IMG/VR virus record: IMGVR_UViG_3300023174_009221
From: a virus
Direction: 5' to 3' (one strand)
DNA length: 64,000 bases
Of this stretch, positions 2,833 to 27,170 are shown in pieces; the stretch's first letter is position 1; the number at the start of each line of letters is the position of its first letter. The notes under the pieces were generated by a model, which did not search any database, was not told the origin of the DNA, and saw only the letters and a list, made by a program, of their open reading frames with translations. The translations under genes were made by a program, and so were the position numbers.

Positions 2833-3318
2833 TTAATTTGATGTTATATTAATTATTTGATTAAAACCCTCATCTAAAGTTGGAGTCTCAAAAGATTGTA
2901 TCATATCTAAAATGACTCCAGTAGACACCCATTTATTTTCTTGTAAAGATCTTTGTTTATTTCTAATCTGATATTCTTCAGGTGTCAATATTGGAAAAAC
3001 AACGGCTATTTTTTGAAAATCAGGACTAAAATAACTTAGTGTTTTCATTCTTCGTTTTTTTGTGATATTAGTCATATCAACAATAGTCGATGTTTTTGTC
3101 TGATTTGCTTCGATAAATTTTTTTAGTAATAATTTATCAACCTCTTTCCCATCAACACTTCGAAACGCCAAATTGTAGTCTTCTATCTTAGAAAGTTGTA
3201 AAATGATTTCATCACGAGAAATAACATTCACACCAGAATAATTGTTTTTTATCCAGGTTGATTTTCCAGATAGCACCGTTCCAACAAGAACTAAAATATA
3301 TGGATTGTCCCACTTCAT
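2833..3318 (-). CDS. P-loop kinase (AAA_33 / polynucleotide-kinase-like)
   Basis: Walker A GTVLSGKST, ISRDEI, IVDMTN, FETPTLDEGF. Confidence 0.85.
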   Translation of the reverse strand: MKWDNPYILVLVGTVLSGKSTWIKNNYSGVNVISRDEIILQLSKIEDYNLAFRSVDGKEVDKLLLKKFIEANQTKTSTIVDMTNITKKRRMKTLSYFSPDFQKIAVVFPILTPEEYQIRNKQRSLQENKWVSTGVILDMIQSFETPTLDEGFNQIINITSN

Positions 3319-22724: not shown

Positions 22725-22985
22725 ATGCCATCAGTATCAAAAAAACAACAAAGACTTATGGGAATGGCTTATGCTTGGGCTAAGGGCGAAATGCCAGGGG
22801 CTTCAAAATCAGTAAAGGATCTAGCCAACTCTTTTCTAAAAGGCAGTGACAAAAAGAAACCAGCTAAAGACTCCAATACCTATAGGAGAAGGTTGAAAAA
22901 ACTAAGAGATTTTGCAGCAACAAAACATGATAATCTTCCTGAAAAAGTTTCAGAGAATCACATTCTAAGATTTACAGAGTTCTAA
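22725..22985 (+). CDS. DUF3008-like protein
   Basis: MPSVSKKQQRLMGMA...LRDFAATKHDNLPEKV; TAATATATA at 22696-22704. Confidence 0.75.
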   Translation: MPSVSKKQQRLMGMAYAWAKGEMPGASKSVKDLANSFLKGSDKKKPAKDSNTYRRRLKKLRDFAATKHDNLPEKVSENHILRFTEF

Positions 22986-23222
22986 CTATTTCGACTCTGG
23001 TTTTAATCCCCTATCTCCAATTAATTTCATTTTTCTCCCGTCGCTCCATATAAAGGCCTCATTGGGTGAAATCATCTGAAATGAATCACATTCAACATAT
23101 GTTACGGTGTAGTTAATGTTATCACCTTGGCAAACACCAATTGTAAAATTTTTTTTCCTTCTCGGGCCTACACAAGAAAAAAATGTAGATAGAATCACCA
23201 ATACGAATAAACTTTTTTTCAT
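22986..23222 (-). CDS. Putative small lipoprotein
   Basis: MKKSLFVLVILSTFFSC signal peptide II-like sequence. Confidence 0.6.
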   Translation of the reverse strand: MKKSLFVLVILSTFFSCVGPRRKKNFTIGVCQGDNINYTVTYVECDSFQMISPNEAFIWSDGRKMKLIGDRGLKPESK

Positions 23223-23232
23223 ATATTATACT

Positions 23233-23346
23233 TTAAGCAGTTTTGTTTTTATGTTTTTCTTTTCTGGAGTATGTTTTCTTACTTTTCTCAATTTGAGGTC
23301 GAGTTGCTGCCCAGATTTCTTGAAGAGTAAGTTGAATTGTTTTCAT
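23233..23346 (-). CDS. 37-aa basic protein, ArfA-like ribosome rescue factor candidate
   Basis: Manual translation MKTIQLTLQEIWAATRPQIEKSKKTYSRKEKHKNKTA; TATCTTTG at 23367-23374 upstream; below the ORF-track cutoff. Confidence 0.6.
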   Translation of the reverse strand: MKTIQLTLQEIWAATRPQIEKSKKTYSRKEKHKNKTA

Positions 23347-23435
23347 TTGTTCTACTTTTAATTATTCAAAGATAGTAAATTTTTCTTAGATAAAAAAAAA
23401 TAAAAAAAAATAAGAAATTTTTTATATATAGTCAT

Positions 23436-25067
23436 ATGAGATATTTAAAATTATATGAGGCCTTTTCTTCCAAGGGCATTTCTAAAACTATAAATTTTTT
23501 ATCACAAAAAATATCAAGTCAATCGAAAGAAAAATTCTTAGAAGATCTAAAAGAATTTATGCAAAATTCAGATTATCCGCTAAATAAATTAACGGATGAC
23601 TTTATACAATATCTACCGTTCAAAAAGGCTATTTTATTAAAAAATGACAAAGATGTGTCCAACAGAAAGGGTATCTGGGTAATTAAATATTGGTTTTCAG
23701 TTGAAAATGGCTATTTAGGATATACCGCAACAGGAAATAAAACATACACCTTTCGAGAACCAAAAACAATCCATAACAGCCCAAATAGAAAAGACCCACC
23801 CTTCACTAATCGAGAGTTAGACTATATCAAAAAAAATATTACAGAAACCGGTATAATCTGCAGAGTAACAGACTATAGTAAATTAAAAACCGGTCAAGTT
23901 GTAATTGGTATATTTGGTGGTGACATTGCGATAGCTACTGTTTATGTTGATAACAGAGATAGAGTCTACGCCATACAGAATGTAGCATCTGGTTCGTATC
24001 CATCAGACTCAGGTTGGCGTGAATACACAGAATACGGTGACCAATCTTGGTATATTTATGAACCAAGAACTATACCAGATGACCACGAAAAGCTTACTTT
24101 TTATACACCAGGTGATGAACCACTAAGATATGAAGAAAAAGAAGAGCCATCGCAATCAGAAAATCTGTCTCATCTGAATTGGAATTTACCTTTAGACTAT
24201 AATTTTAACCAAGTAATATGGTCTGACTCTGATATGAACTCCATTTCAAGTTATAAAGAAGTTAGTAATGCTGACTTTGCTTTAGTTTTAATGTATGATG
24301 ATTTATTGAATCCGGATGTAGATGCTCCCACTTTTGAGCCAGTATCGGATATCAAAAAATTTAGAGAGGAGTCAAAATCTGGGTCAACTCACTTTATGAC
24401 AGATGAAGAGATAGCTAAGTCTAATTATAACAGATTAATGGATAGGTTAATTTCTATTTATGGTCTGGAATTGAAATCTCAAGAGCAGGATTTATTGAAT
24501 TTACAAAAATTATTTTCCACTTTTTTATGTGGAGAAAAAATCCTTTACAGTTTAATTGCAGGCGAACCAGACACTGAAAATATTTATCGGTTTGAACAAA
24601 ATATAAAATATTTGATAACATGTGAAGATGATGAGGAATCAAAAAAGTGGGCCTTTGAAAAAGTCAAAAAAAGCTTTTTTTCATATAAAGAGGAATCAAA
24701 AAAATATGTTGATAGATTTTCTGGATCTTTAAAAAGAGTTCAGGACGAGGGCGACGAAGAAACGATTGAAATTTTTGATAAACTATCAAAACTAAGTAAA
24801 AAGATTTTACAACTTATTTTTATAAAACCCGTAACAACTCTTAATGAATTAAGATACTTACTGTCTAAAATATACAGTATAACTTATTACTACTCAAAAA
24901 CCGATAAATCAAGAGGCCTTTACAAAGTATTCAGTAATATAAAATTTAATGATAGTGACGTATCAGATGGTATAGGTATAATGGCAAAAAGAACGCAAGT
25001 AGAAATAGAAGAAGACAGAAAATTCGTTGACGAATTAGAAAAATACATTTTACAGCTGTTAGGTTAA
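23436..25067 (+). CDS. Putative internal head protein
   Basis: MRYLKLYEAF start; TTATATATA 5 nt upstream. Confidence 0.75.
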   Translation: MRYLKLYEAFSSKGISKTINFLSQKISSQSKEKFLEDLKEFMQNSDYPLNKLTDDFIQYLPFKKAILLKNDKDVSNRKGIWVIKYWFSVENGYLGYTATGNKTYTFREPKTIHNSPNRKDPPFTNRELDYIKKNITETGIICRVTDYSKLKTGQVVIGIFGGDIAIATVYVDNRDRVYAIQNVASGSYPSDSGWREYTEYGDQSWYIYEPRTIPDDHEKLTFYTPGDEPLRYEEKEEPSQSENLSHLNWNLPLDYNFNQVIWSDSDMNSISSYKEVSNADFALVLMYDDLLNPDVDAPTFEPVSDIKKFREESKSGSTHFMTDEEIAKSNYNRLMDRLISIYGLELKSQEQDLLNLQKLFSTFLCGEKILYSLIAGEPDTENIYRFEQNIKYLITCEDDEESKKWAFEKVKKSFFSYKEESKKYVDRFSGSLKRVQDEGDEETIEIFDKLSKLSKKILQLIFIKPVTTLNELRYLLSKIYSITYYYSKTDKSRGLYKVFSNIKFNDSDVSDGIGIMAKRTQVEIEEDRKFVDELEKYILQLLG

Positions 25068-25498
25068 ATACCCCTTTGTGACTCTCTTTTCAAATCTCGT
25101 TCTTTTATAGTTTGTCTTTTATCCCATAATTTTTTTCCTTTAACAACCCCAATTTTTAATTTTATTTTGTTGTTTTTTATAAATATTTGAAGTGGAACAC
25201 AAGTAACACCGTTATCTGAAAAAAGTTTGGAGATTTTTAAAATCTGAGACTTGGTGAGTAACAATTTTTTTTGTCTGTTTTCATCATGAGTATCAGCAAA
25301 ATGTTGTTGTTTGTATCTACTGACTTTGAAATTTTTTATCCACAATTCTCCGTTATTAAAAAATATATATGAATCAGTTAGATTAACACCACCCAAACGA
25401 ATAGACTTTACTTCGGTGCCTATTAATATAATACCAGCATCAAATTCTTCAATGATTTGATATTCAAAATAAGCCTTTCTATTGTTTGCTAAATTCAT
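25064..25498 (-). CDS. smpB: SsrA (tmRNA)-binding protein SmpB
   Basis: NRKAYFEY...AGIILIGTEVKSIR...KKLLL...GKKLWDKRQTIKERD. Confidence 0.96.
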   Translation of the reverse strand: MNLANNRKAYFEYQIIEEFDAGIILIGTEVKSIRLGGVNLTDSYIFFNNGELWIKNFKVSRYKQQHFADTHDENRQKKLLLTKSQILKISKLFSDNGVTCVPLQIFIKNNKIKLKIGVVKGKKLWDKRQTIKERDLKRESQRGI

Positions 25499-25503
25499 AA
25501 ATA

Positions 25504-25534
25504 CAAAGATAAATAGAATTTCTTAAACAACAAA
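25504..25534 (-). promoter_or_regulatory. Bacteroidota-type promoter (TTTG-N19-TATCTTTG) for smpB
   Basis: -7 element at 25504-25511, 5 nt before the ATG; -33 at 25531-25534. Confidence 0.65.
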
Positions 25535-25550
25535 CCGTAAATATATGCAA

Positions 25551-25892
25551 TTAAAGATACTTGTCTAAAATTTCCACTAATTTATCCTTCTGAAAACTAC
25601 CAATAATTTTAACAGGGTTTCCCTCTTCATTTAAAATTGGATTTCCAGCTTTATAAAAAAGAATAGTTGGGACATTTCTGACTGATAGAGTTTTTAACAA
25701 CTCACTACACTCGTCAGCATTTAATTTACCACACCAGACTCTGCCTTGATATTGTGAAGAGACTTCGTCTATAATTGGAGCAATTGTTTTACAAGGACCA
25801 CACCAAGGGGCCCAGATATCTATAAGACTAAAATCATTTTTAGTGAAACTTTCAAAGTTTCCTTCATTCAATTCTGTTATGTAAGCCATCAT
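25551..25892 (-). CDS. trxA: Thioredoxin
   Basis: WAPWCGPCK active site. Confidence 0.95.
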   Translation of the reverse strand: MMAYITELNEGNFESFTKNDFSLIDIWAPWCGPCKTIAPIIDEVSSQYQGRVWCGKLNADECSELLKTLSVRNVPTILFYKAGNPILNEEGNPVKIIGSFQKDKLVEILDKYL

Positions 25893-25907
25893 AATTTATT
25901 TATTTTT

Positions 25908-27170
25908 TTAAAAAGGTAATTTGTTTTGTTCGTTAACTACCCCATCATTATATTTATTAGGATCTAAAATGTTTCCTACTTTATTTCTTGTATCATTTAC
26001 AATTTCTCTGCGAACAGATAATTCCAAAAGTAACAAGTTTTGAGAATCCAGTTCAATTTCACTAATTTTATGTTTTTCTAAAATTGAAATAGCAACCAGG
26101 GGATCGTGTTGGTAAATTTCTAAAACCGATTTCACAATTTTAATCTGCTCTGAAAGTTTCAAACCCTTTAAGTTTTTTATTGAATTTGGTGCATATCTAC
26201 CCAATCTATTTAGTAATTCTAGATCTGAATTATCAGGACGACAGTCTACATAATCAGTATCAGAAAAGAAAAAATAAAGTTTTTTCCAAAGTTCGACAAA
26301 CTCAGGATTATTGTAAACATTTCTCATATAAAATAAAAACTCATTAGAAGTGTAAATGCTCCCAAGATTAGTATCCTGGAATAAATTCATTGTCTCCTTT
26401 TCATCTTTTAGGTCAAGCGCGTATATCTCAGAGTTGACCCCATACGCCTCTAATATAAATTCTTCTACTAGTTTATCACGACGTATATTAAAATATTGTT
26501 CTAAAATCTTAGAATAAGTCTGAAATAAATCATGGTATCTTTTTTTGAATTTTAATTTAATCGTATCTCCGAACCTCCAATAGTGGCAGTATCTTAATAA
26601 ATCTATTTCAAATTTATCTAACTGACATTGTAACTCCTGCTGTTTTTTTACAATTCTTATAGTAGTGTGTGAAGGAGTCATTAGATTACACACTTTAAGA
26701 TTACCAGTTGATATAAAATCAGAAAATTCATCGGTCCAATAGAGTTTATCTTCATCAATTAGATATCCAATTCTAGTAGCATTGATATCGAATGACCTAA
26801 GTATCATAGAGGTATCGTTAACATTAGATTTGAAGATAATTTTATTAAAAATACCATTATTTGAAACATCGGTAATAGTATAGAATTCTTTAGTGACTTG
26901 CCTAAAATTAAGACCTCTGTAATCTTCAAAAAAAGTTCTGGTTTTTTCTTGATACTGAAAAAGAGATTCTCTATAGGAATCCAATTTTTCAATAATTCCA
27001 TCAAATATAAAAACATCAATATCGTTTACAACAGCTTTAGTTCCAGAAACTAATTGCCAAACAATATTTGCTATTGCACCTCCGGCGATAAATCCGGTTT
27101 CGGGTAAACCCCATTTTTCTTTAATTATCTCAACAGCTTGTCTTCCAAGTCTCTCAATATCTAAATTCAT
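25908..27170 (-). CDS. Protein with N-terminal Pol-beta-superfamily nucleotidyltransferase-like head
   Basis: FIAGGAIAN...NDIDVF...SFDIN motifs. Confidence 0.6.
   Translation of the reverse strand: MNLDIERLGRQAVEIIKEKWGLPETGFIAGGAIANIVWQLVSGTKAVVNDIDVFIFDGIIEKLDSYRESLFQYQEKTRTFFEDYRGLNFRQVTKEFYTITDVSNNGIFNKIIFKSNVNDTSMILRSFDINATRIGYLIDEDKLYWTDEFSDFISTGNLKVCNLMTPSHTTIRIVKKQQELQCQLDKFEIDLLRYCHYWRFGDTIKLKFKKRYHDLFQTYSKILEQYFNIRRDKLVEEFILEAYGVNSEIYALDLKDEKETMNLFQDTNLGSIYTSNEFLFYMRNVYNNPEFVELWKKLYFFFSDTDYVDCRPDNSDLELLNRLGRYAPNSIKNLKGLKLSEQIKIVKSVLEIYQHDPLVAISILEKHKISEIELDSQNLLLLELSVRREIVNDTRNKVGNILDPNKYNDGVVNEQNKLPF

Follow-up and report, generated by a model that had tools for sequence, protein, structure and literature searches.

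The 37-codon open reading frame (ORF) described here lies on the minus strand of a 64,000-nucleotide stretch of viral DNA (IMG/VR record IMGVR_UViG_3300023174_009221), hereafter referred to as the window. It is a real gene under selection, and its product is probably an ArfA-like alternative rescue factor, with a tail that would enter the mRNA channel and a head that would enable a release factor to act, made constitutively beside the SmpB of the phage. Three independent lines of evidence support this proposal, i.e., the similarity of the tail to that of ArfA, the non-stop design of the genes in a sister clade, and the link with smpB. The initial annotation of this region, made from the letters of the DNA, had proposed a constitutive phage-encoded rescue factor working alongside SmpB, and this idea is now supported by the conservation of the family, the tail match, a bridging protein of phage J2-1, the hairpins of the sister clade and the adjacency to smpB. 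The family as a whole should not be filed as ArfA, but most likely works like ArfA.

The features of the small-gene region are listed in Table 1. The ATG-to-TAA frame was found where it had been described, with the same translation, and it ends just past the K-H motif as claimed, the true stop codon being five codons beyond K-H (stop at +15 nt). The nearby phage smpB was likewise verified. After the small ORF of the window no hairpin was detected (minimum free energy of -1.5 kcal/mol for the next 42 nt). The 78-codon ORF that follows is probably co-transcribed with the small gene, and gave no family match in the Pfam, NCBIfam and PHROGs scans. The Rfam and ARAGORN searches of the window yielded no tmRNA and only two tRNAs, and a scan for sigma-70 promoter and terminator consensus sequences around the small gene gave nothing above the shuffled control.

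Table 1. Features of the small-gene region (positions in the window) and tail proteins of Bacteroidales and Holdemanella (positions in other contigs, L).
Feature	Position	Strand	Description
37-codon gene for the small basic protein	23233..23346	-	ATG to TAA; stop codon 23233-23235; 'class II' form
Basic tail, residues 16-35	23242..23301	-	conserved; aligns with the ArfA tail and DUF7230; proposed mRNA-channel anchor
N-terminal module, residues 1-15	23302..23346	-	family-specific; proposed effector or release-factor-contacting part
TATCTTTG, Bacteroidota -7-type element	23367..23374	-	exactly 20 nt 5' of the small-gene ATG
Phage smpB	25064..25498	-	Pfam SmpB E=4e-52; 1.7 kb upstream of the small gene, same strand
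78-codon ORF	22986..23222	-	lipoprotein-like signal (Cys17); begins 10 nt past the small-gene stop
543-codon convergent gene	23436..25067	+	between the small gene and smpB
Bacteroidales and Holdemanella tail proteins	L008, L009, L011-L013, L016 (about 3001-3090)	+	also L010, L015, L014

The window belongs to a large, AT-rich freshwater phage, with weak DNA similarity to uncultured phages of 634-642 kb and protein synteny with a 262-kb viral contig (L001), the nearest related phage. Freshwater metagenomes from several studies contain the stretch, as do two metatranscriptome libraries from a single sample, the latter as assembled contigs that cannot show transcription, strand or ends. One assembled contig of 14.5 kb spans the whole small-gene region. 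Several neighbours are of separate note. The 543-residue protein encoded between the small gene and smpB begins with M-R-Y-L-K-L-Y, has a counterpart of 538 residues (39% identity) at the corresponding position of L001, and gave no Pfam, NCBIfam or PHROG match; the sequence T-A-T-A-T-A-T-A stands 5 nt 5' of its ATG, and the 3' end of its gene overlaps the smpB stop by four bases, tail to tail. Upstream of smpB are encoded a thioredoxin (25551-25892, -) and a 420-residue protein with a weak nucleotidyltransferase (NTP_transf_6) match (25908-27170, -), and this block (25551-27170) is conserved at the DNA level (67-73%) in the 634-642 kb uncultured phages, its gene order being kept in L001. On the other side, an 86-residue protein (22725-22985, +; M-P-S-V-S-K-K-Q-Q-R-L-M-G ...) has matches to several PHROGs of unknown function, the best at 4e-8, and a weak one to DUF3008, and is conserved beside a 70-residue ORF in L001.

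Conservation in other phages, proposed as a check in the initial annotation, was borne out. Among 50,697 phage records searched by tblastn, the cultured Flavobacterium phage vB_FspM_immuto has a homologue that is full-length and 62% identical, an annotated CDS for a hypothetical protein (49 residues). With phmmer, an exhaustive search of 1.84 billion representative proteins gave 73 clusters (50% identity) at E≤1e-3, a profile search of the 90%-identity collection, in which 8000 candidates were scored, gave at least 1998 clusters, and scanning of viral contigs confirmed at least 99 loci on contigs of 5 to 296 kb. The family is mainly phage-borne, and nearly all of its members are annotated as hypothetical or are uncalled. 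About 35 residues are conserved, consisting of the N-terminal module M-K-T-I-Q-x-T-x-Q-E-I-W-x-A-T and the tail R-P-x-[IV]-x-K-[SN]-K-K-x-Y-x-R-K-x-K-H-K, in which K24, Y26, R28, K29 and K31 are invariant or near-invariant across the family. This 35-residue core is almost invariant inside clades, and the sequence after K-H-K is free to vary. The AlphaFold2 model based on the family alignment (mean pLDDT of 82) shows just one short helix, at residues 8-15, the tail being extended, a predicted shape that fits, as expected, a peptide folding on the ribosome. The NCBIfam scan of the window protein gave no match, nor did the DUF7230 profile in a scan of the three most related large phage records. 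At the syntenic place of the nearest related phage, L001, the small gene is missing. As a separate observation, the corresponding segment there (L001:3103-3525, -, syntenic to window 22986-23346) encodes a 140-residue YqeY-like protein (Pfam PF09424, E=8.5e-19), another translation-associated gene that replaces both the small gene and the 78-codon ORF at the same spot.

The tail of the window protein resembles that of ArfA, the alternative ribosome-rescue factor A of Escherichia coli (YhdL), whose tail lies in the empty mRNA channel. When the family profile was compared with 177,635 PDB sequences, the best match was ArfA (E=0.16), and four of the six matches were ArfA constructs; the profile alignment places the tail against ArfA residues of about 25-54 with one 3-residue gap at G-K-G. 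Comparison by hhalign with an alignment of enterobacterial ArfA gave P=3e-4 and a probability of 40%, with 46% identity over 24 columns, and with a broader set including phage ArfAs P=6e-4 and a probability of 28%. The alignment with the ArfA tail described in the initial annotation was thus reproduced, both as the best PDB match and by hhalign, but is weak alone (E=0.16; probability of 28-40%). Since the similarity is limited to about 24 lysine/arginine-rich residues and the hhalign probability is only 28-40%, convergence or an effect of composition is possible, and the tail, as judged from the sequence, would be homologous to that of ArfA but diverged, or else have converged closely on it. 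The N-terminus of the family does not align with the RF2-contacting part of ArfA (H-x-K-G-x-I-K-D-N ... D-P-L-F), its own conserved sequence being different and shorter. Neither the window protein (hmmscan, E≤10) nor the 62 relatives (E≤1) matched Pfam ArfA (PF03889), for which true phage ArfAs scored 33-41 bits in the same test, and a Foldseek search with the AlphaFold2 model gave no PDB match, as is expected for a 37-residue extended peptide. Taken as a whole, the computational checks suggested in the initial annotation, and several further ones, agree with an ArfA-like role.

A bridge between the two families is provided by Pseudoalteromonas phage J2-1, of which the annotated 51-residue ArfA is free of the G-K-G insert and has a true stop six residues after K-H. 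Over overlapping residues, this protein is above threshold for DUF7230 (28.6 bits, cut-off 27) as well as for Pfam ArfA (41.3 bits). BLASTP between the window protein and J2-1 ArfA, which again aligned the tail, gave E=3e-6, in a single comparison chosen post hoc among about 10 candidates. The window protein itself scored 21.9 bits on DUF7230 (PF23876; E=2e-4), below the 27-bit cut-off and by its tail only (profile positions 16-35 of 42); 53 of the 62 relatives matched this profile (best relative E=4.2e-6), and two carry a precomputed PF23876.2 assignment. Parallel weak matches were found to PHROGs 6310, 2701 and 18092, all families of unknown function, the neighbours in the Atlas feature search included DUF7230 (0.90) and an ArfA-bearing cluster (0.89), and the JGI pipeline names two relatives ArfA. 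In the literature searched there was no mention of DUF7230, and no paper that joins alternative ribosome rescue with Flavobacterium.

The second line of evidence comes from the 3' ends of the genes. A stable hairpin (-8.8 to -19 kcal/mol) is present in the 42 nt that follow the K-H codons in 31 of 63 distinct loci, and 28 of these 31 belong to one clade, marked by Q-E-R-W-A-A-S in the N-terminal module and including phage immuto. Every member of this Q-E-R-W clade has a GC hairpin inside the ORF, which extends from 4-8 nt past K-H to positions +22 to +30, with an A-run before and a U-run after it in most members. The in-frame stop lies at +36 to +228 nt, beyond the hairpin, except for one member with its stop within the hairpin, and the peptide encoded between hairpin and stop is variable in both length and sequence. 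The other 32 loci, the window among them, are without a hairpin and have a true stop at +12 to +33 nt (within 11 codons).

Pairing of the stem is maintained by covariation. The 25 distinct stems are 97% canonical over 8 pairs, compared with 78 ± 2% for shuffled partners and 20-66% for slid ones, and several pair types are found at stem positions 3 and 4; because this tally was anchored at the loop on the fold of each sequence, and many of the sequences are related, it overstates independence, but the result is qualitatively plain from the Q-E-R-W sequences themselves. RNAalifold on a MAFFT alignment of the hairpin region predicted no pairs, which we attribute to unequal loop lengths that shift the arms out of register.

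In brfA a rho-independent terminator precedes the stop codon, and arfA likewise yields a non-stop mRNA, so that the product is tagged and removed by trans-translation and accumulates only when tmRNA-SmpB is overwhelmed (PMC8012679). By its in-ORF hairpin like that of arfA and brfA, the Q-E-R-W clade looks like a trans-translation-repressed form, and the window copy, with its true stop five codons after K-H, like a constitutive form. The label 'constitutive' given to the window gene in the initial annotation is apt in this respect, as the window copy has a true stop while the sister clade has a terminator-like hairpin. If the Q-E-R-W transcript is truncated in the U-run, about 10-12 residues would remain after K-H, and 4-11 residues follow K-H in the constitutive forms. 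Active ArfA has a comparable number of residues after this motif.

The third line of evidence is the linkage with smpB. Three of the 18 larger contigs that carry the small gene also encode SmpB. On two of these three and on seven further contigs of the same lineage, nine viral contigs of three sequence types in all (L084/L100-102, L095-098 and L087), smpB is located directly upstream of the small gene on the same strand and ends 33-40 nt before it. Since the SmpB of these contigs is only 39-43% identical to that of the window, the smpB-adjacent lineage is distant from the window phage. Four essentially complete genomes of the hairpin clade are without smpB, and this absence fits a form that is regulated by the trans-translation of the host itself.

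The smpB-adjacent lineage also bears on the promoter. The host-type promoter element upstream of the small gene, to which the initial annotation pointed, is confirmed only in part. TATCTTTG is indeed present 20 nt before the ATG, but the window as a whole shows no enrichment of TANNTTTG, with 119 matches where 102 ± 10 were expected. It was found upstream in 9 of 55 loci compared with 4.7% of control windows, and three distant relatives (L084, L087 and L095) have it at 15-20 nt from the ATG. In the smpB-adjacent lineage a TA-N-N-TTTG element stands in the short spacer, 15-20 nt 5' of the small-gene ATG, as in the window. Separately, a second exact TATCTTTG was observed at window 25504-25511 (-), only 5 nt before the smpB ATG, and if this copy is a -7 promoter element, the smpB mRNA would be leaderless or near-leaderless.

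The same tail is also carried by proteins with other N-terminal modules, at least three in number, from phage G001, the huge phage LR745206 and Bacteroidales chromosomes. A 59-residue form (L121:1393-1569, + and L118:1393-1569, +) is present both in the related 262-kb phage and in LR745206, an uncultured phage of 634 kb. It has the tail K-V-H-K-S-x-K-x-Y-T-R-K-x-K-[HY]-K followed by a true stop, and a longer, different N-terminal module (M-K-T-x-K-I-H-I-G-T ...); in the nearest relative phage, its gene is away from the syntenic place. Bacteroidales metagenome-assembled genomes, on contigs of 0.3-1 Mb, encode proteins of about 54-62 residues with the tail T-R-P-K-I-Y-K-N-R-K-K-Y-T-R-K, in up to three copies per genome, and Holdemanella biformis also has one small tail protein. 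One of the Bacteroidales genes (L011) is surrounded by genes for an AlaX-like tRNA_SAD protein and DUF2461, and by no obvious prophage genes. The Bacteroidales and Holdemanella proteins could be host-encoded relatives of the phage factor. Because the same tail occurs with different heads, it may be a portable anchor, and the effector part may differ.

In the mechanism that we propose, the basic tail (residues 16-35, ending in K-H-K) would insert into the mRNA entry channel when a ribosome has stalled at the 3' end of a truncated mRNA, the only state in which the channel is empty downstream of the P site and hence accessible to the tail. The N-terminal 15 residues, including the short helix, would be placed in the decoding centre or the A site, and a class-I release factor of the host, likeliest RF2 by analogy with ArfA and BrfA, would then hydrolyse the peptidyl-tRNA without a stop codon. 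The sister-clade genes, if expressed from a non-stop mRNA, should be held down by trans-translation, and from the window copy with its normal stop the active form would be made whenever the gene is transcribed. During infection, the window peptide would serve as a second, tmRNA-independent rescue arm beside the phage SmpB. From these sequence relationships we infer ribosome binding, release-factor dependence and a benefit to the phage, and a role against RNA-cleaving defences is a matter of speculation. Against the mechanism stand the failure of all members to reach Pfam ArfA, a head that does not align with the RF2-contacting segment and so lends no weight to release-factor recruitment, the missing gene at the syntenic place of L001, and the presence of smpB in only three of the 18 larger contigs.

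Other explanations of the small gene were weighed against this mechanism. That the frame is a chance opening in AT-rich intergenic DNA, and not a gene, might be suspected from its shortness and its absence from the annotation track, but thousands of homologues keep the amino-acid sequence across divergent DNA, homologues are annotated CDS in cultured phages, and the AlphaFold2 pLDDT is 82; this explanation is extremely improbable and, in practice, already refuted by conservation. Alternatively, the product could be a generic small basic nucleic-acid-binding protein, such as a DNA or RNA chaperone, a packaged internal peptide or a regulator, for which the likeness to the ArfA tail would arise from K/R-rich composition, and the hairpins of the sister clade would be ordinary terminators overlapping a tolerant 3' end. 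The ArfA statistics, all marginal (PDB E=0.16; hhalign 28-40%; DUF7230 under the cut-off), leave room for such a protein, as does a family without annotated function anywhere. The matching positions, nevertheless, are specific (Y, R-K, K-H and the spacing [IV]-x-K-[NS]-K-K) and almost invariant across the family, and ArfA was the top match in the whole PDB set; the hairpin clade has its stops past the hairpin in all but one member, where the stop is inside it, while the other clade always stops within 11 codons; and a generic function would hardly account for smpB lying directly beside the gene in an unrelated lineage. We consider the nucleic-acid-binding protein to be quite unlikely.

A rescue-like protein with a different outcome is also conceivable, for which the tail would bind the empty mRNA channel as proposed, but not for release-factor-dependent rescue. 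The peptide might plug vacant host ribosomes (shut-off or hibernation), as channel-plugging viral proteins do, it might modulate trans-translation or compete with it, or it might bring in another hydrolase; for the sister clade, the non-stop design would then do no more than link the peptide level to tmRNA activity. In its favour are the N-terminal module, unrelated to that of ArfA, the combination of the tail with at least three other N-terminal modules, which suggests a portable anchor with exchangeable effectors, and the adjacency to smpB, which would also suit a modulator of SmpB. A constitutive channel plug, however, would compete with the SmpB that the phage itself encodes nearby; the known small proteins with a K-H-type tail and/or non-stop regulation (ArfA, BrfA and ArfT) are all rescue factors (PMC8012679), and the size of 37 residues matches that of ArfT-like minimal rescue factors. 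On balance a non-rescue outcome appears rather unlikely, and release-factor-dependent rescue by an ArfA-like peptide is retained as the preferred reading. A more far-reaching version, to which we give only tentative weight, takes the tail K-K-x-Y-x-R-K-x-K-H to be a portable sensor of the empty channel carried on varied heads, the window family to be a separate class with a head that does not recruit RF2, and the hairpin clade to use the trans-translation capacity of the host for sensing the state of infection. The 15-residue head might in that case recruit RF1 or another hydrolase, or plug host ribosomes. If such a separate class is real, it would represent, together with the chromosomal relatives in Bacteroidales, the first release-factor-type back-up rescue for a phylum without recognised ArfA, BrfA or ArfT.

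Genetics in a single lineage led to each of ArfA, BrfA and ArfT, and further factors of this kind, missed by sequence searches, are anticipated in reviews (PMC8012679). The results described above suggest that many Bacteroidota phages carry their own back-up for freeing stalled ribosomes. What this study adds is the scale of a family that had gone unannotated, a head that sets it apart, the pairing of a regulated with a constitutive architecture, and an operon shared with a phage smpB. If the preferred reading, an ArfA-like rescue factor, is confirmed, a function would be given to DUF7230-like proteins, ribosome rescue would be common as a phage-encoded function beyond proteobacterial phages, and a natural regulated/constitutive pair would be at hand for asking why phages need rescue, for instance during host mRNA decay or against RNA-cleaving defences. 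The family member in a cultured Flavobacterium phage makes the proposal testable in that system.

The window family was compared with the closest known systems. DUF7230 (PF23876) shares the tail, as matched by most of the relatives, but the score of the window protein is below the cut-off and involves the tail only. ArfT of Francisella, which uses either RF1 or RF2 (PMC8012679; PMC6514570), belongs to the charged-helix repeat (KGG-repeat) family described by Burroughs and Aravind (PMC6514570). As a minimal rescue factor of about 40 residues ArfT is similar in size to the window protein of 37, but the window protein has no Pfam match to such a family at E≤10. BrfA is confined to Bacillus and is about 62 residues long when active. 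This release-factor-dependent rescue factor of Bacillus subtilis (YqkK; PMC8012679) has the K-H motif, and its in-ORF terminator architecture is the same as that of the Q-E-R-W sister clade; the window copy differs in being without an internal terminator, the comparison with BrfA being based on its published description.

ArfA in its active form is about 55 residues long and ends a few residues past K-H. Both ArfA and the window protein are small and share the basic C-terminal tail [IV]-E-K-[NS]-K-K ... Y-x-R-K-x-K-H, and the sister clade of the window gene is, as arfA, built to give a non-stop mRNA. Unlike ArfA, the window protein of 37 residues is without the G-K-G insert, its N-terminal 15 residues are unrelated to the 25-residue RF2-contacting part of ArfA, and its gene has a normal stop codon with no hairpin before it. 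Another difference is that the phages carrying the window family have hosts of Bacteroidota type; for the Fibrobacterota-Chlorobiota-Bacteroidota (FCB) group, a survey covering over 15,000 bacterial genomes apparently lists no ArfA-type factor, as read from a table whose column order we infer (PMC11633108).

Genuine ArfA genes do occur in phages of Proteobacteria, as detected by tblastn with E. coli ArfA, and ArfA has already been annotated in a few proteobacterial phages (PMC12753301; PMC8953757). Annotated phage ArfAs include those of Pseudoalteromonas phage J2-1, Citromicrobium phage RXM, Roseobacter phage CRP-212 and Erythrobacter phage XM05, and gp30 of pelagiphage HTVC027P, with an ArfA domain, is transcribed (PMC12753301). 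Further ArfA-like copies were noted in Salmonella phage Arash (gp99c; L116:217-441, +), where it is labelled 'ribosomal protein L2', in Pseudomonas phage pf16 (L112:301-438, +), where it is unannotated and opposite to gp199, and in Pseudomonas phage Y3 (L117:304-459, +), where a GC hairpin lies inside the ORF as in arfA. The proteobacterial phage ArfAs, known from annotation and one transcriptome, differ from the window family in keeping the ArfA-type N-terminus and in passing Pfam ArfA. Like the window protein they are short products of phage genes, and in several a true stop comes 4-6 residues past K-H, which makes them constitutive forms; J2-1 ArfA has, again like the window protein, a tail without the G-K-G insert, and it passes DUF7230 as well as ArfA.
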